Shown here one piece after another: positions 1 through 6,217 of a stretch of DNA of 6,217 bases; position 1 is the stretch's first letter, and every line of letters starts with the position of its first letter. Origin of the DNA: a virus (Duplodnaviria; Heunggongvirae; Uroviricota; Caudoviricetes); IMG/VR virus record IMGVR_UViG_2695420746_000008. One strand, written 5' to 3'. Under the pieces are notes generated by a model that saw nothing but the letters and a program-made list of their open reading frames with translations, searched no databases and was not told where the DNA came from. The position numbers and the translations under genes are program-made.

Positions 1-437
1 GCCCATACCGGCGGCTTACCATCCGGATACTGGATCTTGTTTGTAAAAACCTCGCTTTCAATAAATTTTTTTCCGTGACAGCAGGGGCACTGTTTTTTGC
101 TCGCCGCGCTACGGGCATAATCTTCAAACGCATACGAAGCCATAATACGCATCACTGCCGGTTTTATTTCTGCCGGGAGTTTTCTTAACGCCGCCACGCG
201 ATCACACCGACTGAGTGCATATTCTGTCAGCAATTCTGTTGCCCGCTCTCTGTCATTCATACTAATGCCCATTTTCCCAAGGAACGCAGAAACCCCCATC
301 TCAGCCCGATTCTGTGTCATGCCCTGCGCGGCCATCACATCAGTGATACTCAGCGCATCTTTCGACGTTGAGGCCGATGCATCAGTCAGGCCGGGGGATT
401 TTGGGGAGTAGTATTTCGGTAAATCTTCCAGTTTCAT
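1..437 (-). CDS. Antitermination protein Q (lambda Q family), N-terminal ~145 codons; 3' end of the gene lies beyond the window start
   Basis: Minus-strand ATG at 437..435 overlaps the rusA stop (ATGA). The frame stays open to position 1. My translation MKLEDLPKYYSPKSPGLTDASASTSKDALSITDVMAAQGM...ASYAFEDYARSAASKKQCPCCHGKKF parallels the lambda Q N-terminus (HSPKSP, GTDVMAA, CxxCHG) as I remember it. Absent from the ORF track because it is truncated by the window edge. Confidence 0.85.
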   Translation of the reverse strand, partial: MKLEDLPKYYSPKSPGLTDASASTSKDALSITDVMAAQGMTQNRAEMGVSAFLGKMGISMNDRERATELLTEYALSRCDRVAALRKLPAEIKPAVMRIMASYAFEDYARSAASKKQCPCCHGKKFIESEVFTNKIQYPDGKPPVW

Positions 438-814
438 TTTTTGACCTGCCCTTCAAGCATTATGGGATAAATCTTCACCCCCAGACGTCCACCAGATACT
501 GGCTGACCACGAACGATATTGATTTCATCAAACTGCTCATCGTCCATTAGCAACCCCGCATGCGTCAGCGCATCCAGCGGCGCTTTCAGAATATTGTCCA
601 GGTCACGGCGGCGCTTATCCGGTGGTTCTGCAATAATTTTTATTGCCAACCTTCCGGACAGGCTTAATTTCAGCCGCTGCTGGCGAACAATAAGCGCCAC
701 TGCCCGGCGATAACGCTCCCCGGCTTTTGATACAAAATATGTGCTGCCACGACGACGCCAGTAAGTGTTCACCGTCGGCGGGTAAGGTAAAACAAATTCT
801 ATGCGCTCGGTCAT
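434..814 (-). CDS. rusA: RusA-family Holliday junction resolvase (crossover junction endodeoxyribonuclease)
   Basis: 126-aa ORF from the track. It contains the RusA-type acidic motif (PDKRRRDLDNILKAPLDAL...DDEQ) and is similar in length to E. coli RusA (120 aa). ATG at 814 directly follows the stop of the upstream gene (TAA|ATG) and its own stop overlaps the Q start. Confidence 0.9.
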   Translation of the reverse strand: MTERIEFVLPYPPTVNTYWRRRGSTYFVSKAGERYRRAVALIVRQQRLKLSLSGRLAIKIIAEPPDKRRRDLDNILKAPLDALTHAGLLMDDEQFDEINIVRGQPVSGGRLGVKIYPIMLEGQVKK

Positions 815-1873
815 TTATGCTTTCCACTTCAGAACACCCGAATTTCTCGCGTGCATTAAAAAACGAATCAGCAACAACAGCTGACTGCCGTGTTTCTCTT
901 CAAAATCTTTTACTCCGGCATGTAGTTCGTTACGGCATTTACGGCATAACGGAATAACAAACAAATCATCAGCCTTTGTTCCCATCCCTCCCAGTCCATG
1001 ACCAATGATGTGATGCGGATCATCTGCCTGATTGCCACACGTCATGCATTTCTGCGTTTTTACCCAGCGCGTGTATACAGGCATCTCTTCCCGTTGTGAT
1101 TTCTGGCGCTGGAGATACTGAGCCGGTGACTCCGGATCAACGGCAATGCTGACCACCGTCTTTTCCTGTGGTGGGTTCTGTTGCTGGTGGACGTGAGGCA
1201 GTAACGCAATATTTTTTGTGCGCTGCTTCAGTATGCTGGTGGCTGTCTGCTCTCCCGGTATGATGTCGCTTTCACTGTACACAGAGCGAATTTTTTCCGC
1301 ACGCAACCCCAGCGAACGACGTAATACCGCTTCCGGTAGCGCGTCCGCCACCTGATTGCGGACCGCCCACCAGGATAATTCAGCCAGAGATAATTCACGC
1401 TCCTGCGTACCGCTTATTGCGTGACCGATGACGTCAATCATCCATGCTGACAGGTTTTGATGAGCAAGTTGCTCGAGTGATTCGGATGTCTGGTCACGCA
1501 GCTGGTTGTCGCAGTGCCAGCACAACACCATTGCGCCGGTACCATAACGGTGAATGACGGTTTCGCTGTGATGATAATCGCCGTGTGGCCACTGGCAGGA
1601 TTTAATATGGCGCAACAGCCAGTCAGACAATGCACCAGCACCACCAGCAGCACGAATCACCCGTGCGTTACTGAAAAACGGCAGCAATGTTTTGTCTTCC
1701 ACCAGCGGCTGGCGAGCGGCAGGAACGACCCCGGACGGCAGATTACGCATGCTTTTTGGTTCCGGCTCCACCAGTATTCTGCCGTTATGGAATGCTGACA
1801 TTGATTCACGGCCTGGCTTAACGATAACCAGACCGAGTTCCGGTACCAGAACAGGTCGAAGTAATACCCGCAC
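815..1873 (-). CDS. DUF968-family prophage protein (YdfU-like) with Cys/His-rich HNH-like motifs
   Basis: 352-aa ORF. The start is GTG at 1873, preceded by GGAGG at 1878-1882. Codon pattern is G-rich at first positions. It has CWHCDNQ and CMTCGNQADDPHHIIGH...CRKCRNELH motifs. Position between a rem-like ORF and Q matches ydfU in K-12 Qin (recollection). An internal ATG start (MSAFHNG, about 1801) cannot be excluded. Confidence 0.8.
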   Translation of the reverse strand: MRVLLRPVLVPELGLVIVKPGRESMSAFHNGRILVEPEPKSMRNLPSGVVPAARQPLVEDKTLLPFFSNARVIRAAGGAGALSDWLLRHIKSCQWPHGDYHHSETVIHRYGTGAMVLCWHCDNQLRDQTSESLEQLAHQNLSAWMIDVIGHAISGTQERELSLAELSWWAVRNQVADALPEAVLRRSLGLRAEKIRSVYSESDIIPGEQTATSILKQRTKNIALLPHVHQQQNPPQEKTVVSIAVDPESPAQYLQRQKSQREEMPVYTRWVKTQKCMTCGNQADDPHHIIGHGLGGMGTKADDLFVIPLCRKCRNELHAGVKDFEEKHGSQLLLLIRFLMHARNSGVLKWKA

Positions 1874-1948
1874 ATTACCTCCAGATCCGTTGCTGGAATG
1901 TGCGGGACGGACGCGTTGGCCGTTCGGAGTAAGGGAGCCTGACGGAGA

Positions 1949-2230
1949 TTATCCAGTGACGGTAGTCGAGGCTAAGGGCTTTTTTAACCTCGCATCCGCG
2001 CCTGCGGTAACACTGAATGAGCCATTCGGCCTGTTCTTCAGTGCATGGGGGATGCTGGTACCAATCAGATTTAAATGCGTGAGAGCGCCGCCCGTGCCTG
2101 CTGGCAAAGACGGCTGAATTATCAGAATTGTGTAGTCTGGAAGGCAGTGGCTGACAATAGCGCCATTCTCAACGCGCACAGTATAGAGGCCATCTTCACT
2201 AAAAATTTCACGTAATTCTTCGATTTTCAT
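1949..2230 (-). CDS. Hypothetical small protein (93 aa) at the position occupied by rem in Qin-type prophages
   Basis: ATG at 2230 with GGAAGGA 8 nt upstream (the track starts 3 nt earlier at a TTG). First ~30 residues (MKIEELREIFSEDGLYTVRVENGAIVSH) look protein-like and G is enriched at codon position 1; the C-terminal half is compositionally odd. Same frame as the DUF968 ORF, separated from it by a TAA and 75 nt. Confidence 0.5.
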   Translation of the reverse strand: MKIEELREIFSEDGLYTVRVENGAIVSHCLPDYTILIIQPSLPAGTGGALTHLNLIGTSIPHALKNRPNGSFSVTAGADARLKKPLASTTVTG

Positions 2231-2311
2231 CAACAGAATCCTTCCAGATAAATAGCACTCCCCTGTTCGGGGTCCATCCCTCTTCTCCCTGCGCGCTACT
2301 TAAGTGAGTCG

Positions 2312-2339
2312 ATTCTATCTGCGAAGGTGCGCGAATCAA
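2312..2339 (-). promoter_or_regulatory. Candidate sigma70 promoter (TTGATT-16 nt-TAGAAT) for the rem-like/DUF968/rusA/Q transcription unit
   Basis: On the minus strand the -35 TTGATT is at 2339..2334 and the -10 TAGAAT at 2317..2312 with a 16-nt spacer, about 80 nt upstream of the ATG at 2230. Hexamer match only; no experimental support. Confidence 0.25.
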
Positions 2340-2360
2340 ATTCACCGGAAATAAACAACA

Positions 2361-2399
2361 AAAAACCCGCCGAAACGCTGAGAGATCACAGCGATGGGC
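2361..2399 (-). terminator. Rho-independent terminator-like hairpin plus U-tract (3'-end module copy A)
   Basis: Minus strand reads CCCGCC...(CGCTG-tgatctct-CAGCG)...GGCGGG followed by TTTTT (plus-strand AAAAA at 2361-2365). GC stem with a U-run; the loop is unusually large because of a 22-nt insertion relative to copy B. Confidence 0.4.
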
Positions 2400-2438
2400 G
2401 GGTTAAGTGCGGGTGCGTTGAGGATGCCTGACACATCA
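2399..2438. repeat. 40-nt direct repeat, copy A (cgggttaagtgcgggtgcgttgaggatgcctgacacatca); abuts the N-run
   Basis: Exact 40-nt identity with 2592-2631. The upstream flank (aaaaacccgccgaaacg) is also shared apart from a 22-nt insertion in copy A. On the minus strand this is the sequence lying just 5' of the U-tract terminator. Confidence 0.9.
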
Positions 2439-2441
2439 AAG

Positions 2442-2528
2442 NNNNNNNNNNNNNNNNNNNNNNNNNNNNNNNNNNNNNNNNNNNNNNNNNNNNNNNNNNN
2501 NNNNNNNNNNNNNNNNNNNNNNNNNNNN
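2442..2528. other. Run of 87 N (assembly gap or masked sequence); content and true length unknown
   Basis: Positions 2442-2528 are all n. Confidence 1.
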
Positions 2529-2573
2529 GGGCATTATCTGAACATAAAACACTATCAATAAGTTGGAGTCATT

Positions 2574-2592
2574 ACCAAAAAAACCGCCGAAA
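2574..2592 (-). terminator. U-tract with short GC stem at the 3' end of the hok transcript (3'-end module copy B)
   Basis: Minus strand reads ...CCGC-loop-GGCGG followed by UUUUUU (plus-strand A6 at 2577-2582). The stem is short and weak, so termination efficiency is uncertain. A GC-rich hairpin (2637-2668) lies between the hok stop and this element. Confidence 0.35.
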
Positions 2593-2631
2593 CGGGTTAA
2601 GTGCGGGTGCGTTGAGGATGCCTGACACATC
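2592..2631. repeat. 40-nt direct repeat, copy B; candidate fbi-like 3' element of the hok mRNA
   Basis: Identical to 2399-2438. Its minus-strand sense (..ccucaacgcacccgcac..) is complementary to the predicted hok mRNA 5' end at 2988-3003 over about 15 nt with one bulge. Confidence 0.85.
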
Positions 2632-2673
2632 AGAGGTGGGCGGGGATGGGATCAGCTCCCCGCCCGGTCACTC

Positions 2674-2829
2674 TTACTTCCTGGATTCGTAGTCTACGAA
2701 GACAGCGACCTCCGTCTGGCCGGTTCGGATTCGTACCTCACAGAGGTCTTTCCTCGTTACCAGTGCCGTCACTATGACGGTTAAACAGATGACGATCAGG
2801 GCGATTAACATCGCCTTTTGCTGCTTCAT
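2674..2829 (-). CDS. hok: Hok-family type I toxin (51 aa, membrane-active small protein)
   Basis: Translation MKQQKAMLIALIVICLTVIVTALVTRKDLCEVRIRTGQTEVAVFVDYESRK is near-identical over the first ~44 residues to HokD/RelF of E. coli K-12 as I recall it. ATG at 2829 with AAGGAGAAG upstream; TAA stop at 2674-2676. Confidence 0.9.
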   Translation of the reverse strand: MKQQKAMLIALIVICLTVIVTALVTRKDLCEVRIRTGQTEVAVFVDYESRK

Positions 2830-2886
2830 AGCCTGCTTCTCCTTGCCTTTCGGCATGTAAGAGGCTAACCTACATGTGCAAAGCAT
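2674..2886 (-). CDS. mok: Mok-like in-frame upstream extension of hok (70 codons), expected to couple hok translation
   Basis: Track ORF of 70 aa in the hok frame. Its N-terminal extension MLCTCRLASYMPKGKEKQA resembles the MokC extension (MLNTCRVPLTDRKVKEKRA, from memory). Whether it is translated as such is inferred from hok/sok biology. Confidence 0.55.
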   Translation of the reverse strand: MLCTCRLASYMPKGKEKQAMKQQKAMLIALIVICLTVIVTALVTRKDLCEVRIRTGQTEVAVFVDYESRK

Positions 2887-2987
2887 GAAATTGGCCTCAG
2901 ATTAATGTTAAGCGTCTTGCCGGACGCGTAATGTTAACTGGGGCTTTTCTCTATCTGCCTTTTGGTGTTCATGCCTGAAGCAGATAG

Positions 2988-3003
2988 CCTCAAGCACCCG
3001 CAG
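2988..3003 (-). promoter_or_regulatory. tac-like 5' element of the hok mRNA, complementary to the 3' repeat element
   Basis: Plus-strand cctcaagcacccgcag (2988-3003) matches the minus-sense repeat ccucaacgcacccgcac at 15 of 16 positions with one indel. The mRNA 5' end can therefore pair with the 3' element, as in hok tac/fbi fold-back inhibition. Confidence 0.4.
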
Positions 3004-3005
3004 TC

Positions 3006-3035
3006 ATTCTACTTACCTCGCCAATATGAAATCAA
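3006..3035 (-). promoter_or_regulatory. Candidate hok promoter (TTGATT-18 nt-TAGAAT), predicted TSS near 2999
   Basis: Minus-strand -35 TTGATT at 3035..3030 and -10 TAGAAT at 3011..3006. The predicted start places the tac-like element at the extreme 5' end and gives a transcript of about 420 nt, consistent with known hok mRNAs. Confidence 0.4.
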
Positions 3036-3056
3036 TCAGAAAGGTGCCCCATAAAA

Positions 3057-3743
3057 TCACTCCTTCTCTTCTTTACCGTAGTGGAGTTGACCAATTTTGA
3101 TAAGAGGGCGTCCCTGAGATTTGCGGTGTAGATTGGTATCGCGCAGAGAATACACACAGCCACAATATTCCTGCTGATAGAATTTTTCGCGCTTGCTGAT
3201 TTCAATCATACGGGACGAGCCGCCCTGCTTGCGCCAGTTATAATCCCAGTACACCATGCCCGGATAATGCGCGACGGCTCGCCGCCCACAGTCGTTAACC
3301 TGCTGCATATTTTTCCAGCGTGAAATGCCCAGTGAACTGCTGATCACACTGAAACCATTTTCAGCGGCGTACAGCGCTGTCCGCTCAAAACGCATGTCAA
3401 AACACATGGTGCAACGGATCCCTCGTTCGGGCTCCCATTCCATTCCTTTGGCTCGTTCAAACCAGTTGTCTGTGTCGTAATCAGCATCAATAAACGGCAC
3501 GCCGTGTTGTTCAGCAAAGCGAATATTCTCATCCTTACGAATTAAATACTCTTTCTGAGGATGAATGTTCGGGTTGTAGAAAAAGATGGTGTAGTCGATT
3601 CCCGAGGCCTGAAGCGCCTCCATCACCTCACCGGAACATGGAGCACAGCAAGAGTGCAGTAGTAGTTTGTTTGCCCCGTTTGGGAGCTCCAATTTGGGCC
3701 GTTTGAAATCAGCAACTGTCATAAATATGTTTATTGGGGTCAT
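3057..3743 (-). CDS. queH: QueH-like protein (DUF208; epoxyqueuosine reductase family, Fe-S)
   Basis: 228-aa ORF with the N-terminal [11 protein letters not shown] motif that I recognise as the DUF208/QueH hallmark, plus additional Cys residues (CTMCFD, CGC). No obvious Shine-Dalgarno before the ATG at 3743; an alternative ATG is at 3722. The family call rests on motif recollection only. Confidence 0.7.
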
Positions 3744-3890
3744 AAAAATATCAAAGAGTGTAGCATTAGAACGGGGCTATCGGAAACAGATGTGTGACTG
3801 CTCCCCGCCCTTTCGGGTGGTCTCCTGATGATTTGAGGGTGCAGAAATCCCTCCGGTTAAGGATTAAATTTTTAACAGTGCTAAATTTAA

Positions 3891-4304
3891 TTATTCAGTT
3901 CTGGATTTTGTCGCCCTGCGTATCCGCGCTTTCGCGTTACGCTCAATCTGTATCAGCTTTTCTATATTTCTCCGCCTTTCCTGTTCCTCCTGGCGCAATA
4001 GCCTTACATCATCTGCCAGTCTGGTTTCTCTTTTTGCCACAGAGAGCATCCAGTCAAACGGCTCCACAACCGCACCGCAGATTTTACAGCGGACCTGACG
4101 CTCTTTTTCGTCAACCCGGACAGAGGCGTGATGGCAATATGGTCTTTCCGATGGCTCATAAAGAAAATTAACCTGATTACGAGGGTCATCCTCTTTTACC
4201 GGAAATAAAACGATATTGCTTAACTCATCTTCTGGTTTTATTTCCATGCTCCTCTCCTTTGATGCGAATGCCAGCGGTAATTGAAGCCTGATAGCTAATT
4301 TCAT
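3891..4304 (-). CDS. Hypothetical zinc-ribbon protein with basic coiled-coil C-terminus (137 aa; 118 aa if started at ATG 4247)
   Basis: Track ORF. It has a C-x-HH...C-x2-C cluster (YCHHASVRVDEKERQVRCKICG) and an Arg/Glu-rich C-terminal helix. Two possible starts: ATG 4304 directly after the upstream stop (TGA|ATG, GGAGG 10 nt upstream) or ATG 4247 (AAGGAGAGGAG upstream). Confidence 0.65.
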   Translation of the reverse strand: MKLAIRLQLPLAFASKERSMEIKPEDELSNIVLFPVKEDDPRNQVNFLYEPSERPYCHHASVRVDEKERQVRCKICGAVVEPFDWMLSVAKRETRLADDVRLLRQEEQERRRNIEKLIQIERNAKARIRRATKSRTE

Positions 4305-4727
4305 TCACAGTATCGCCTCCTGAAAATTACCCTGATAGAAAGCCAGTACACGCTGCATAGCTTCGCTCTTCCGGCACTCGCGACAGATTATATTCAGGCG
4401 CCTGTCGTAGCGGCGTATTTCTCCGTCAGGTAATGACCAGATAAGGTCCGGATCAACAACAACCGGTTTCCTCACCTTTACTCTCGAGAGTTTTTTGCGG
4501 GCGCTTTGCCAGTCCTTGCGAGCCTGTTCAGACGGGAATAAGCCGTAGCCAGAATTATATACATCACCACTTGCGACCAGTTCTATGCATAAGCGACCGA
4601 CAGACGCACGACTGATACCTGTTTCATCTGACAACTGCCGAATCGTGACCCGACCGTCCTGATGCACGAGTTCCACAATTCGCGTCTTCAGTTCTTCCCG
4701 CTGTTCGGGAGTAAAAGGTTTCGCCAT
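4305..4727 (-). CDS. Hypothetical winged-HTH DNA-binding protein (140 aa) with C-terminal CxxC
   Basis: Track ORF with ATG at 4727 and AGGAGGA 4 nt upstream. N-terminal HTH-like segment (RVTIRQLSDETGISRASVGRLCIEL) and C-terminal CRECRK. The stop abuts the next gene. Confidence 0.7.
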   Translation of the reverse strand: MAKPFTPEQREELKTRIVELVHQDGRVTIRQLSDETGISRASVGRLCIELVASGDVYNSGYGLFPSEQARKDWQSARKKLSRVKVRKPVVVDPDLIWSLPDGEIRRYDRRLNIICRECRKSEAMQRVLAFYQGNFQEAIL

Positions 4728-4741
4728 AAATCCTCCTGAAA

Positions 4742-5488
4742 CTACTTAACAACCCTCGAATGGCTAACATTCGGACGCCAGCTCTCCCAGTTAAAATTCA
4801 CCCAGCGCCCGCCGTTCATGACCATGCGATCCATCACCCGCTCGCCGAGCAATGTTTTCATCACCTCATAGTTCAGGTTTGTCAGCATCCCCACGCTGCG
4901 CATCGACGCTGTCCGGCGATCAACAATCTGGTGCAGCACCACCTGCTCGTTTTTCGTCTCGCGCTGAATGCCAATTTCATCAAGAACCAGCAGATCCACT
5001 TCGCACAGCTCCCGCAAAAATTTTTCGCCTGACTGCCCGTCGTCATAGCTGGCGTGCAGGGCGCTCATAACATCAGCCACGGTAACCACAATCACTGTCT
5101 GACCGTCTTTCAGCAGGCGATTCCCGATAGCTGCCGCTAAGTGATTCTTCCCGGTACCAGGTTTTCCGCTGAACGCAAAATTTGTACACCCGGTCATCAG
5201 TTCATCGGCGATGGATTTCGCCTGGCTTAACGCGTATCGCTGGCCGTCGTTCTGCACCTGGTAATTCGCAAACGAGCATTTACGGTGCAACGGCTGGATG
5301 CCTGAGCGATTCAGAATTTTTTCCACCCGCAACTGGCGATTCAGGCGGTTGATCTCCTCGCTACGTTTCTGGCCTTCAGCAAGTTGCCACTCGCGCCACT
5401 CCGCTACCGTTCTGAATGGGGCGGTTACATGTGGCGGGGTCAGTCGGCGGATGCGTTCCAGAACGCCGCCTGTCGCAATATTTTTCAT
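4742..5488 (-). CDS. DnaC-like replicative helicase loader (AAA+ ATPase; phage P-function analogue)
   Basis: 248 aa. Walker A FSGKPGTGKNHLAAAI and Walker B DLLVLDEIG are present. The protein is collinear with E. coli DnaC along its whole length (e.g. LTNLNYEVMKTLLGERVMDRM vs LTNSNMEEMTKLLGERVMDRM, from memory). Confidence 0.93.
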   Translation of the reverse strand: MKNIATGGVLERIRRLTPPHVTAPFRTVAEWREWQLAEGQKRSEEINRLNRQLRVEKILNRSGIQPLHRKCSFANYQVQNDGQRYALSQAKSIADELMTGCTNFAFSGKPGTGKNHLAAAIGNRLLKDGQTVIVVTVADVMSALHASYDDGQSGEKFLRELCEVDLLVLDEIGIQRETKNEQVVLHQIVDRRTASMRSVGMLTNLNYEVMKTLLGERVMDRMVMNGGRWVNFNWESWRPNVSHSRVVK

Positions 5489-5494
5489 GGTCCG

Positions 5495-6217
5495 TTACCC
5501 CCTGAAGCCTGGCGGGATCGCACTGTCCGGCAACGAGACGGTGTTAACCTGTCGGAGCAACGTCTCAGGCCGAACACCTTTCGGCGCGAACAGGCCCTGG
5601 TATTCATTGGCGATGCTGTGTCGAATCACCTGCTCAGGTGTAAAACCCTGCTGACGGAATTTTTCCAGTTCCCGTATCGCCCCGTTAGCGCCCTGCTCCG
5701 TTCGAATCGGTTTTCGCAATGCCTGTCTGAACCGGACCCACTCATGCCAGAGTGTTTCCGGCAACCAATCGGGCAGCTCAATAGCCTCCGGCTCGAATTT
5801 TTTAGACGCTCGTTTTTGGCGAGGGGGAGATCAGTATTTAGATCTTCCTCTTCCTCTTCCTCTGGTAACGCTTTTTGATCCGTTTGTGTAACGCTGGCAG
5901 CGTTACCTTTTCGTTTCAGTTCGCGTATTTTTGTTACTCGCTCGTTTGTAACCGCCCGTTTTTTTTAGAGCTTTTTCCGTTATGACGTTCAAAGTTAGGT
6001 AGAGAAAGCCCTCCGTCATTTTCGACCAGCCATCCAACCTGAATTAACGCATCAGCAAAACCAGACATAAAAGTGATGCGATCTATTGCACTTTTTGTAA
6101 CGCCGCGAGCGTTACAATCTGCATTACCGTCTATCATTTGTTGATCCGCCCATGCCCAGAAGCGAATAACCTGAGGTAGCCTGAGTTTAACGGACACTCC
6201 TTCCTGAAATAGAATGG
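5495..6217 (-). pseudogene. Replication initiation protein with DnaT-like C-terminal domain (YdaU-like); frame broken by two -1 shifts at A-tracts; 5' end beyond the window
   Basis: Three consecutive minus-strand frames are needed: frame A (open from the window edge to TAA at 5934), frame C (about 5964 to 5770, KKRAVTNERVTKIRELKRKGNAASVTQTDQKALPEEEEEEDLNTDLPLAKNER) and frame B (5830 to 5495). Frame B has no ATG and only a TTG at 5764. Its C-terminus VNTVSLPDSAIPPGFRG matches the E. coli DnaT C-terminus VNTVSEPDSQIPPGFRG. Frame switches coincide with A8 (plus 5959-5966) and A6 (plus 5798-5803). Confidence 0.6.
5844..5861. repeat. (CTTCCT)3 hexanucleotide tandem repeat, encoding a Glu6 acidic linker on the minus strand
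   Basis: Direct reading: cttcct cttcct cttcct. In minus frame C this is GAG GAA GAG GAA GAG GAA. Confidence 0.9.

Follow-up and report, generated by a model that had tools for sequence, protein, structure and literature searches.

Why the 3′ end of a hok toxin gene should occur twice within a short prophage sequence, on both sides of a run of N, is the question raised by this locus. The stretch analysed (6,217 nucleotides, hereafter the window) was preliminarily described as carrying a duplicated hok 3′-end module, the second copy possibly belonging to a second locus masked or collapsed in the gap. Comparison of the sequence with its relatives suggests that the apparent duplication is probably an assembly artefact, in which scaffolding or gap filling mixed paralogous hok loci. 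Below, R40 denotes the exact 40-nt block shared by the two copies (2399-2438 and 2593-2632). Prophage A, the type-1 locus (toxin gene hok1) and the type-2 locus (toxin gene hokX) are the three parental loci that were compared with the window in a four-way alignment and that cover every base around the gap. The features are:

1949 to 2230, minus strand: Rem-family gene, 93 aa (PF27490 on the exact protein), the last gene of the left block 1-2305
2258 to 2305, no strand assigned: 48-nt switch block, in which prophage A equals the type-1 hok locus and the source of the sequence changes
2359 to 2404, minus strand: copy A terminator, Rho-independent and native to the type-1 hok mRNA, with arms 2364-2371 and 2397-2404, a nested hairpin and a U tract
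2399 to 2441, minus strand: conserved 3′ block of the hok mRNA, copy A (R40 plus AAG), with fbi at 2411-2423
2442 to 2528: 87 consecutive N, either a gap in the scaffold or a mask
2529 to 2575, plus strand: right end of IS1 (terminal 47 nt, ...GGAGTCATTACC), lying after the N run and before copy B
2576 to 2592, minus strand: degenerate terminator arm AAAAAAACCGCCGAAA of the IS1-linked hokX locus, with the exact IS1 junction in contigs L007-L011
2593 to 2635, minus strand: second copy (copy B) of this 3′ block, made up of R40 and GAG; its fbi lies at 2605-2617
2674 to 2829, minus strand: hok toxin gene, 51 aa (PF01848 HOK_GEF, 81.1 bits, cutoff 22)
2674 to 2886, minus strand: mok-like open reading frame, 70 aa, overlapping hok and in frame through it
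2824 to 2999, minus strand: hok mRNA leader and Sok target region (Rfam RF01794), with tac at 2988-2999
3035 to 3006, minus strand: promoter-like site just upstream of the hok leader, from a promoter scan
6171 to 6217, no strand assigned: start of a multi-copy IS element (46-47 nt), inside which the window ends, with 100% matches at several sites per genome

RefSeq gives the name HokD to the corresponding gene (156-nt CDS) of L003, a locus that is otherwise identical, and the mok-like frame has been called as a 70-aa HOK_GEF product in several genomes. The RF01794 match (2999-2824, minus strand) covers the full model with 117 bits (gathering score 59) and E = 5.4e-27; it lies on the hok-sense strand and marks the leader, and Sok would be antisense to the matched strand. 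All defining features that can be tested in sequence are present, and by these the locus is a standard prophage hok/sok of the hokD type. Adjoining it, we detected a prophage gene for a homologue of QueH, epoxyqueuosine reductase (3057-3743, minus strand; PF02677, 220 bits). A promoter-like pair (TTGATT, spacer, TAGAAT) occurs twice on the minus strand, at 3035-3006 before the hok mRNA start and at 2339-2312 before the Rem gene, a short way downstream of the hok terminator.

In the minimum-energy fold of the full-length mRNA, GGGUGCUUGAGG (2999-2988) pairs with CCUCAACGCACCC inside R40, corresponding to a predicted tac/fbi interaction, and the fbi of copy B (2605-2617) pairs with the mRNA 5′ end. 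The fold energy was -191.5 kcal/mol (z = -8.8) for the native form of the transcript and -170.6 kcal/mol (z = -7.4) for the form found in the window. The repeated module is the 3′ tail of the hok mRNA, the fbi element being followed by the transcription terminator. By the tac/fbi fold-back, full-length hok mRNA stays untranslated until 3′ processing (PMC9841398). R40 is exactly identical between the compared type-1 and hokX-type loci and has matches in 4,138 of the 5,426 complete E. coli genomes, up to nine per genome. A hok1-specific 3′ stem, GGGATGGGATCAGCTCC, lies near 2660.

The direct repeat (2399-2441 and 2593-2635) extends over 43 nt with 42 of 43 positions matching, the mismatch being A at 2439 in copy A and G at 2633 in copy B. 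The A is the variant of the hokX-type locus and the G is the type-1 variant. The terminator arm forms a second repeat (2359-2377 and 2576-2594; 19 nt, 95%), and in copy A 21-22 extra bases (CTGAGAGATCACAGCGATGGG) separate this block from R40. About 1e-17 occurrences of a 40-nt exact repeat would be expected by chance within 6.2 kb, by our own estimate and not by a program's. The 40-nt exact duplication of the preliminary description is present, but its second copy, placed there at 2592-2631, was off by one and lies at 2593-2632. Tandem local duplication of the hok 3′ end was considered and rejected: the terminator arms match two distinct loci known elsewhere, and IS1 lies between the copies.

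The two copies differ strongly in their terminators. The copy A terminator folds at -24.7 kcal/mol (z = -5.7), with an 8-bp stem and a nested hairpin, and the copy B terminator at -4.4 kcal/mol, not better than shuffled sequence; the terminator of a canonical relative gave -12.8 kcal/mol. Folding thus confirms the stronger stem that had been proposed for the copy with the insertion. A simple terminator scan of the window detected none, because the loop of copy A is long and branched and the stem of copy B is weak. The assignment of the two copies has to be reversed: the one with the insertion, formerly taken as altered, is the native 3′ end of this hok, contiguous with it in relatives, and the one directly after hok carries a foreign terminator arm from the IS1-linked hokX locus. 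The native terminator is contiguous with hok in L003 and L004, in 25 of 27 IMG/VR contigs and in closed genomes. The arm beside the hokX-linked IS1 bears a C-to-A change weakening the stem.

Between the N run and copy B, the preliminary description had overlooked an IS1 end. Its 47 nt show no visible mismatch to the annotated IS1A and IS1B ends in L005 and L006 or to the full IS1 in L010. The junction of this end with the terminator arm occurs exactly in five other IMG/VR draft contigs (L007-L011), and in five of five it is followed by R40, AAAG and a different hok, hokX. A complete IS1 has 768 bp and is flanked by a target-site duplication of about 9 bp. Simple IS1 insertion with target duplication was rejected for the window, where the flanks are 60-nt near-copies with an indel and not a duplication of about 9 bp. 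Beside hokX, the IS1 (L010, 2700-3520) replaces about 130 nt that are present in L041 (11480-11640), and its flanks in L010, GAGACAAAA and AAAAAAACC, show no target duplication; the lack of duplication together with the missing stretch points to an insertion followed by an adjacent deletion. Independent IS1 insertions at hokD were found in L005 and L006, and a further one in L064.

These IS1 data bear on the possibility that the arrangement is a small real structure, in which the gap truly measures about 87 nt and an orphan hok 3′ module, a short stub and a truncated IS1 right end (at most 134 nt) separate the native terminator from hok1. Recombination between two hok loci, illegitimate or associated with IS1, could have produced such a structure; alternatively, real sequence could have been masked deliberately with N. 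The number 87 is not a conventional placeholder length, suggesting an estimate or a mask, and IS1 activity by hok terminators is recurrent (at hokD in L005 and L006, and in L064); the IS1 of L010 has no target duplication and replaced about 130 nt. IS1-mediated deletions begin at the IS1 end and leave IS1 whole, so a stub of 134 nt would need an extra event. A simple insertion, moreover, does not explain the A/G variant swap, and the structure is absent from every other assembly in the collections searched. We regard it as quite improbable.

The assignment of the window to its sources came from the parental loci. The type-1 locus has the order Rem (95 aa), native terminator with insert, R40, GAGG, hok1, QueH, a 118-aa gene, DUF977, a DnaC-like gene and an IS. 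It was seen in E. coli FDAARGOS_944 and 943, in 25 of 27 IMG/VR contigs, and in closed Shigella-type chromosomes including S. flexneri M90T (CM001474). The type-2 locus, with the order IS1, AAAAAAACCGCCGAAA, R40, AAAG, hokX, was found in five IMG/VR contigs; hokX is about 92% identical to hok1, L041 represents the type-2 locus without IS1, and GGAGTCATTACCAAAAAAACCGCCGAAACGGG is a sequence that tags the IS1-linked hokX locus. Prophage A has the order Q, RusA, DUF968, Rem (93 aa) and then a third hok type. Window positions 1-2305 are 99.96% identical to the closed genomes L045, L046, L049 and L050, where a different hok comes next.

Right of the gap, L056 and L020 differ from the window by one base over 2593-6217, and L065 and L070 are 99.97% identical over the same span. 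The native arrangement is found in seven closed-genome loci whose identity to 2593-6217 is 99.5-99.97%, and likewise in L056 (99.97%). The native terminator abuts hok1 in 15 of 17 closed or near-closed genome loci, and in the remaining two a different IS interrupts just beyond the core. In the finished genomes examined no sequence lies between the native terminator and hok, the exceptions being this different IS at a different site. The exact-protein look-ups, which returned the longest contigs only, gave parental arrangements throughout. The first E. coli genome matches (H1-H30) were tried as an unmasked copy of the window and rejected: alignment showed that their equal span is coincidental, due to an extra Rem-like paralogue. 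This paralogue, of about 250 nt between Rem and hok, is present in O103:H2 12009, SCU-115 and L011 (coordinates 2143-2392 in L011 and 2774-3034 in L001).

In the four-way alignment the window is a mosaic. It follows prophage A to 2305 and the type-1 locus over 2258-2438, takes the type-2 A at 2439 and enters the N run; on the other side it follows type-2 over 2529-2632 and type-1 from 2593 to 6217. All switches of source fall inside exact shared blocks, once in the 48-nt block 2258-2305 and twice in the 40-nt block. The junction at copy A (G, R40, A) has the context GATGGG, R40, AAAGGTGGCGGGAG, and the junction at copy B (A, R40, G) has the context CCGAAA, R40, GAGGTGGGCGGGG. Every piece of the window around the gap has been identified, and the arrangement of these pieces is absent from the finished genomes examined.

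From the reciprocal swap of locus-specific bases across a single gap, with a third switch 100 nt away, we infer that the joins were made by the assembler and not by the cell. The window would be a draft scaffold whose source genome, Shigella or E. coli, is rich in IS and carries several hok loci, and the real chromosome would most likely have a single 3′ module (with the 21-22-nt insert) joined straight to hok. The 194 extra bases would be a product of scaffolding or gap filling. Extension from the left may have passed through the 40-nt core into the branch of the other locus, leaving the A at 2439, while extension from the right may have crossed the core and continued into the hokX locus linked to IS1, taking up its terminator arm and IS1 end; the two extended ends would not have been mergeable, and N would have been left between them.

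Several observations argue for this assembler origin. When one 194-nt block is removed, window 2258-3000 is base for base identical to the E. coli FDAARGOS_944 and 943 loci. The adjacency of native terminator and hok1 in 15 of the 17 closed or near-closed loci and the passage from the IS1/terminator-arm junction to hokX in the five IMG/VR contigs support it as well. In the closed chromosome LR213449.1, the two halves of the window lie about 564 kb apart on opposite strands (prophage A at 2.492-2.500 Mb and the type-1 locus at 3.064-3.075 Mb). The same-lineage draft IMG/VR 2681813268_000003 keeps both parental loci unswapped, and in sister drafts the same repeats carry joins marked by a single N. 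The right end of the window and the IS1 piece both stop 46-47 nt inside multi-copy IS elements, as would be expected of contig ends.

Searches for the chimeric junctions gave the same indication. Both junctions are absent from the 5,426 complete E. coli genomes and from genome_contigs and metagenome_contigs; the right one is also absent from IMG/VR, where the left one occurs once, in the draft scaffold L018. The pattern across the 2258-2305 switch is absent from IMG/VR and from the complete E. coli genomes. In L018, AAAG and a hokX-like gene bearing a single private SNP come after the native terminator, and this scaffold is a mosaic itself, its sources switching at a 52-nt shared block.

Some points count against the assembler having made the joins. 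The 47-nt IS overhangs hint at a k of about 47, and this would suggest that a 40-nt repeat should have been resolved; with such a k, the path from terminator arm through R40 to GAGG would therefore need real reads. Nor would a positive gap (87 N) be expected between pieces whose true separation is zero or negative, and the L018 junction may be real in some strains. A side observation concerns 4119, the only difference over 3.6 kb, where the window has G and closed type-1 genomes have T. The G is the allele of the paralogous copy downstream of hokX (L007, L010), and the drafts L008, L018 and L038 have contig breaks exactly after 4118. This G may be a further trace of paralogue mixing, though the type-1 contig L031 has G in type-1 context.

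The suggestion that a second hok locus is involved was partly right: the copies derive from two different hok loci, as seen from the A variant and from the IS1 junction before hokX in five contigs. A tandem second locus in the gap, on the other hand, is indicated by nothing in the data, and the reciprocal base swap is what mixing of paralogues by an assembler is expected to give. The window contains one Hok ORF, with a tandem hok islet taken as at least two hok CDS within 2 kb. An RNA gene near the gap was considered and rejected, since an Rfam search (E up to 1) over all readable bases of the window returned the hok leader and one chance snoRNA-like match only. The gap as written (87 nt) is shorter than the 156-nt hok gene, though the true gap may be larger. 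A hok-derived small RNA, also proposed earlier, finds no promoter: there is no hok-strand promoter-like site between the gap and copy A, and the nearby site at 2339-2312 lies on the downstream side of copy A.

A real second hok locus with IS1 inside the gap, forming an IS1-separated hok islet, nevertheless deserves consideration, and we judge it unlikely without dismissing it. The order would be Rem, native terminator, R40, AAAG, a hokX-type hok/sok, more DNA, a full IS1, the degenerate arm, R40 and hok1, and the 87 N would underestimate a gap that holds at least 721 nt of IS1 plus the rest. Copy A does have the A of the hokX type and breaks off at the N run; L018 stays identical for 127 nt and goes on into a hokX-like gene, which has one private SNP when compared with the IS1-linked copy of the same assembly; and the 47-nt IS overhangs suggest that 2529-6217 is a genuine graph contig. 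Islets of this kind are known, with 13.5% of chromosomal Escherichia hok genes lying within 2 kb of another (bioRxiv 10.1101/2025.08.07.668861). Yet neither IS1 nor a second hok lies between the terminator and hok1 in 26 IMG/VR contigs or in closed genomes carrying hok1, and the IS1/terminator-arm junction leads to hokX in all five other assemblies. The islet would require crossovers inside the 40-nt and 48-nt identity blocks and a gap estimate wrong by more than 600 nt, and L018 is itself mosaic, switching at short shared blocks.

Real junctions could also stem from a reciprocal crossover in the 40-nt fbi block that swapped hok cassettes between prophage remnants or built an IS1-separated islet. 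The products of such a crossover would be expected at distant sites and not head to tail over a small gap, and we hold this origin to be very unlikely. If it were true, the conserved fbi block would be a recombination hotspot shuffling hok cassettes among lambdoid prophages in Shigella.

The right end of the window carries a lambda-O-like replication gene (5495-6217, minus strand), which is a pseudogene with two frameshifts relative to the intact 266-aa version in L059, the first following ...GKSSKK at a T/A run near 5951-5960, the second following ...DLNTDLPL; insertion of an IS at 6172 has cut off its N-terminus. The prophage is a remnant that has decayed. Within this gene, a perfect TCTTCC repeat of 3.5 units (5843-5863) encodes a poly-Glu linker (EEEEEE), and its copy number varies, with ten E in L059 and a 21-nt offset in L017 and L067.

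The elements involved are known ones, whether the joins come from assembly or from a second locus, and the chromosome itself most likely lacks the apparent duplication. R40 is identical between loci and IS1 lies beside several hok loci, so spurious duplications or hybrid hok loci are possible in Shigella and E. coli short-read scaffolds, and counts of hok copies, islets and orphan 3′ modules taken from draft assemblies need a check against closed genomes. Should the junctions be real, they would add one more case of two known processes, mosaicism of prophages and rearrangement by IS1, at a toxin-antitoxin locus that is itself known.

Compared with known systems, the window shares with short-read false joins of the SSPACE/GapFiller type an N run between repeat copies, contig ends with IS overhangs and source switches at shared blocks; for the window this serves as an analogy only, not as a proven cause. 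According to Page et al. 2016 (PMC5320598), SSPACE and GapFiller, which have been applied to many genomes of this kind, work greedily and are liable to produce false joins. Published hok islets, with at least two hok genes within 2 kb, are ascribed to local duplication (bioRxiv 10.1101/2025.08.07.668861), whereas the modules of the window come from different loci with one hok CDS visible; the islet comparison would apply if a second hok were in the gap. IS1 insertions a few hundred bases from hok 3′ ends are found in E. coli 2018-11-3CC, ECZP248 and L064, while the window shows no more of IS1 than its right end, with the left end and any target duplication lying under the N. IS elements adjoining hokA, hokC and hokE of K-12 were reportedly described by Pedersen and Gerdes in 1999. 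Relative to known hok/sok loci, which are enriched in prophages (bioRxiv 10.1101/2025.08.07.668861), nothing functional differs, and the sole oddity is the second 3′ module beyond the N gap, absent from finished relatives; the 51-aa Hok, the mok-like ORF, the RF01794 leader, the predicted tac/fbi pairing, the terminator and the lambdoid prophage setting are all shared.
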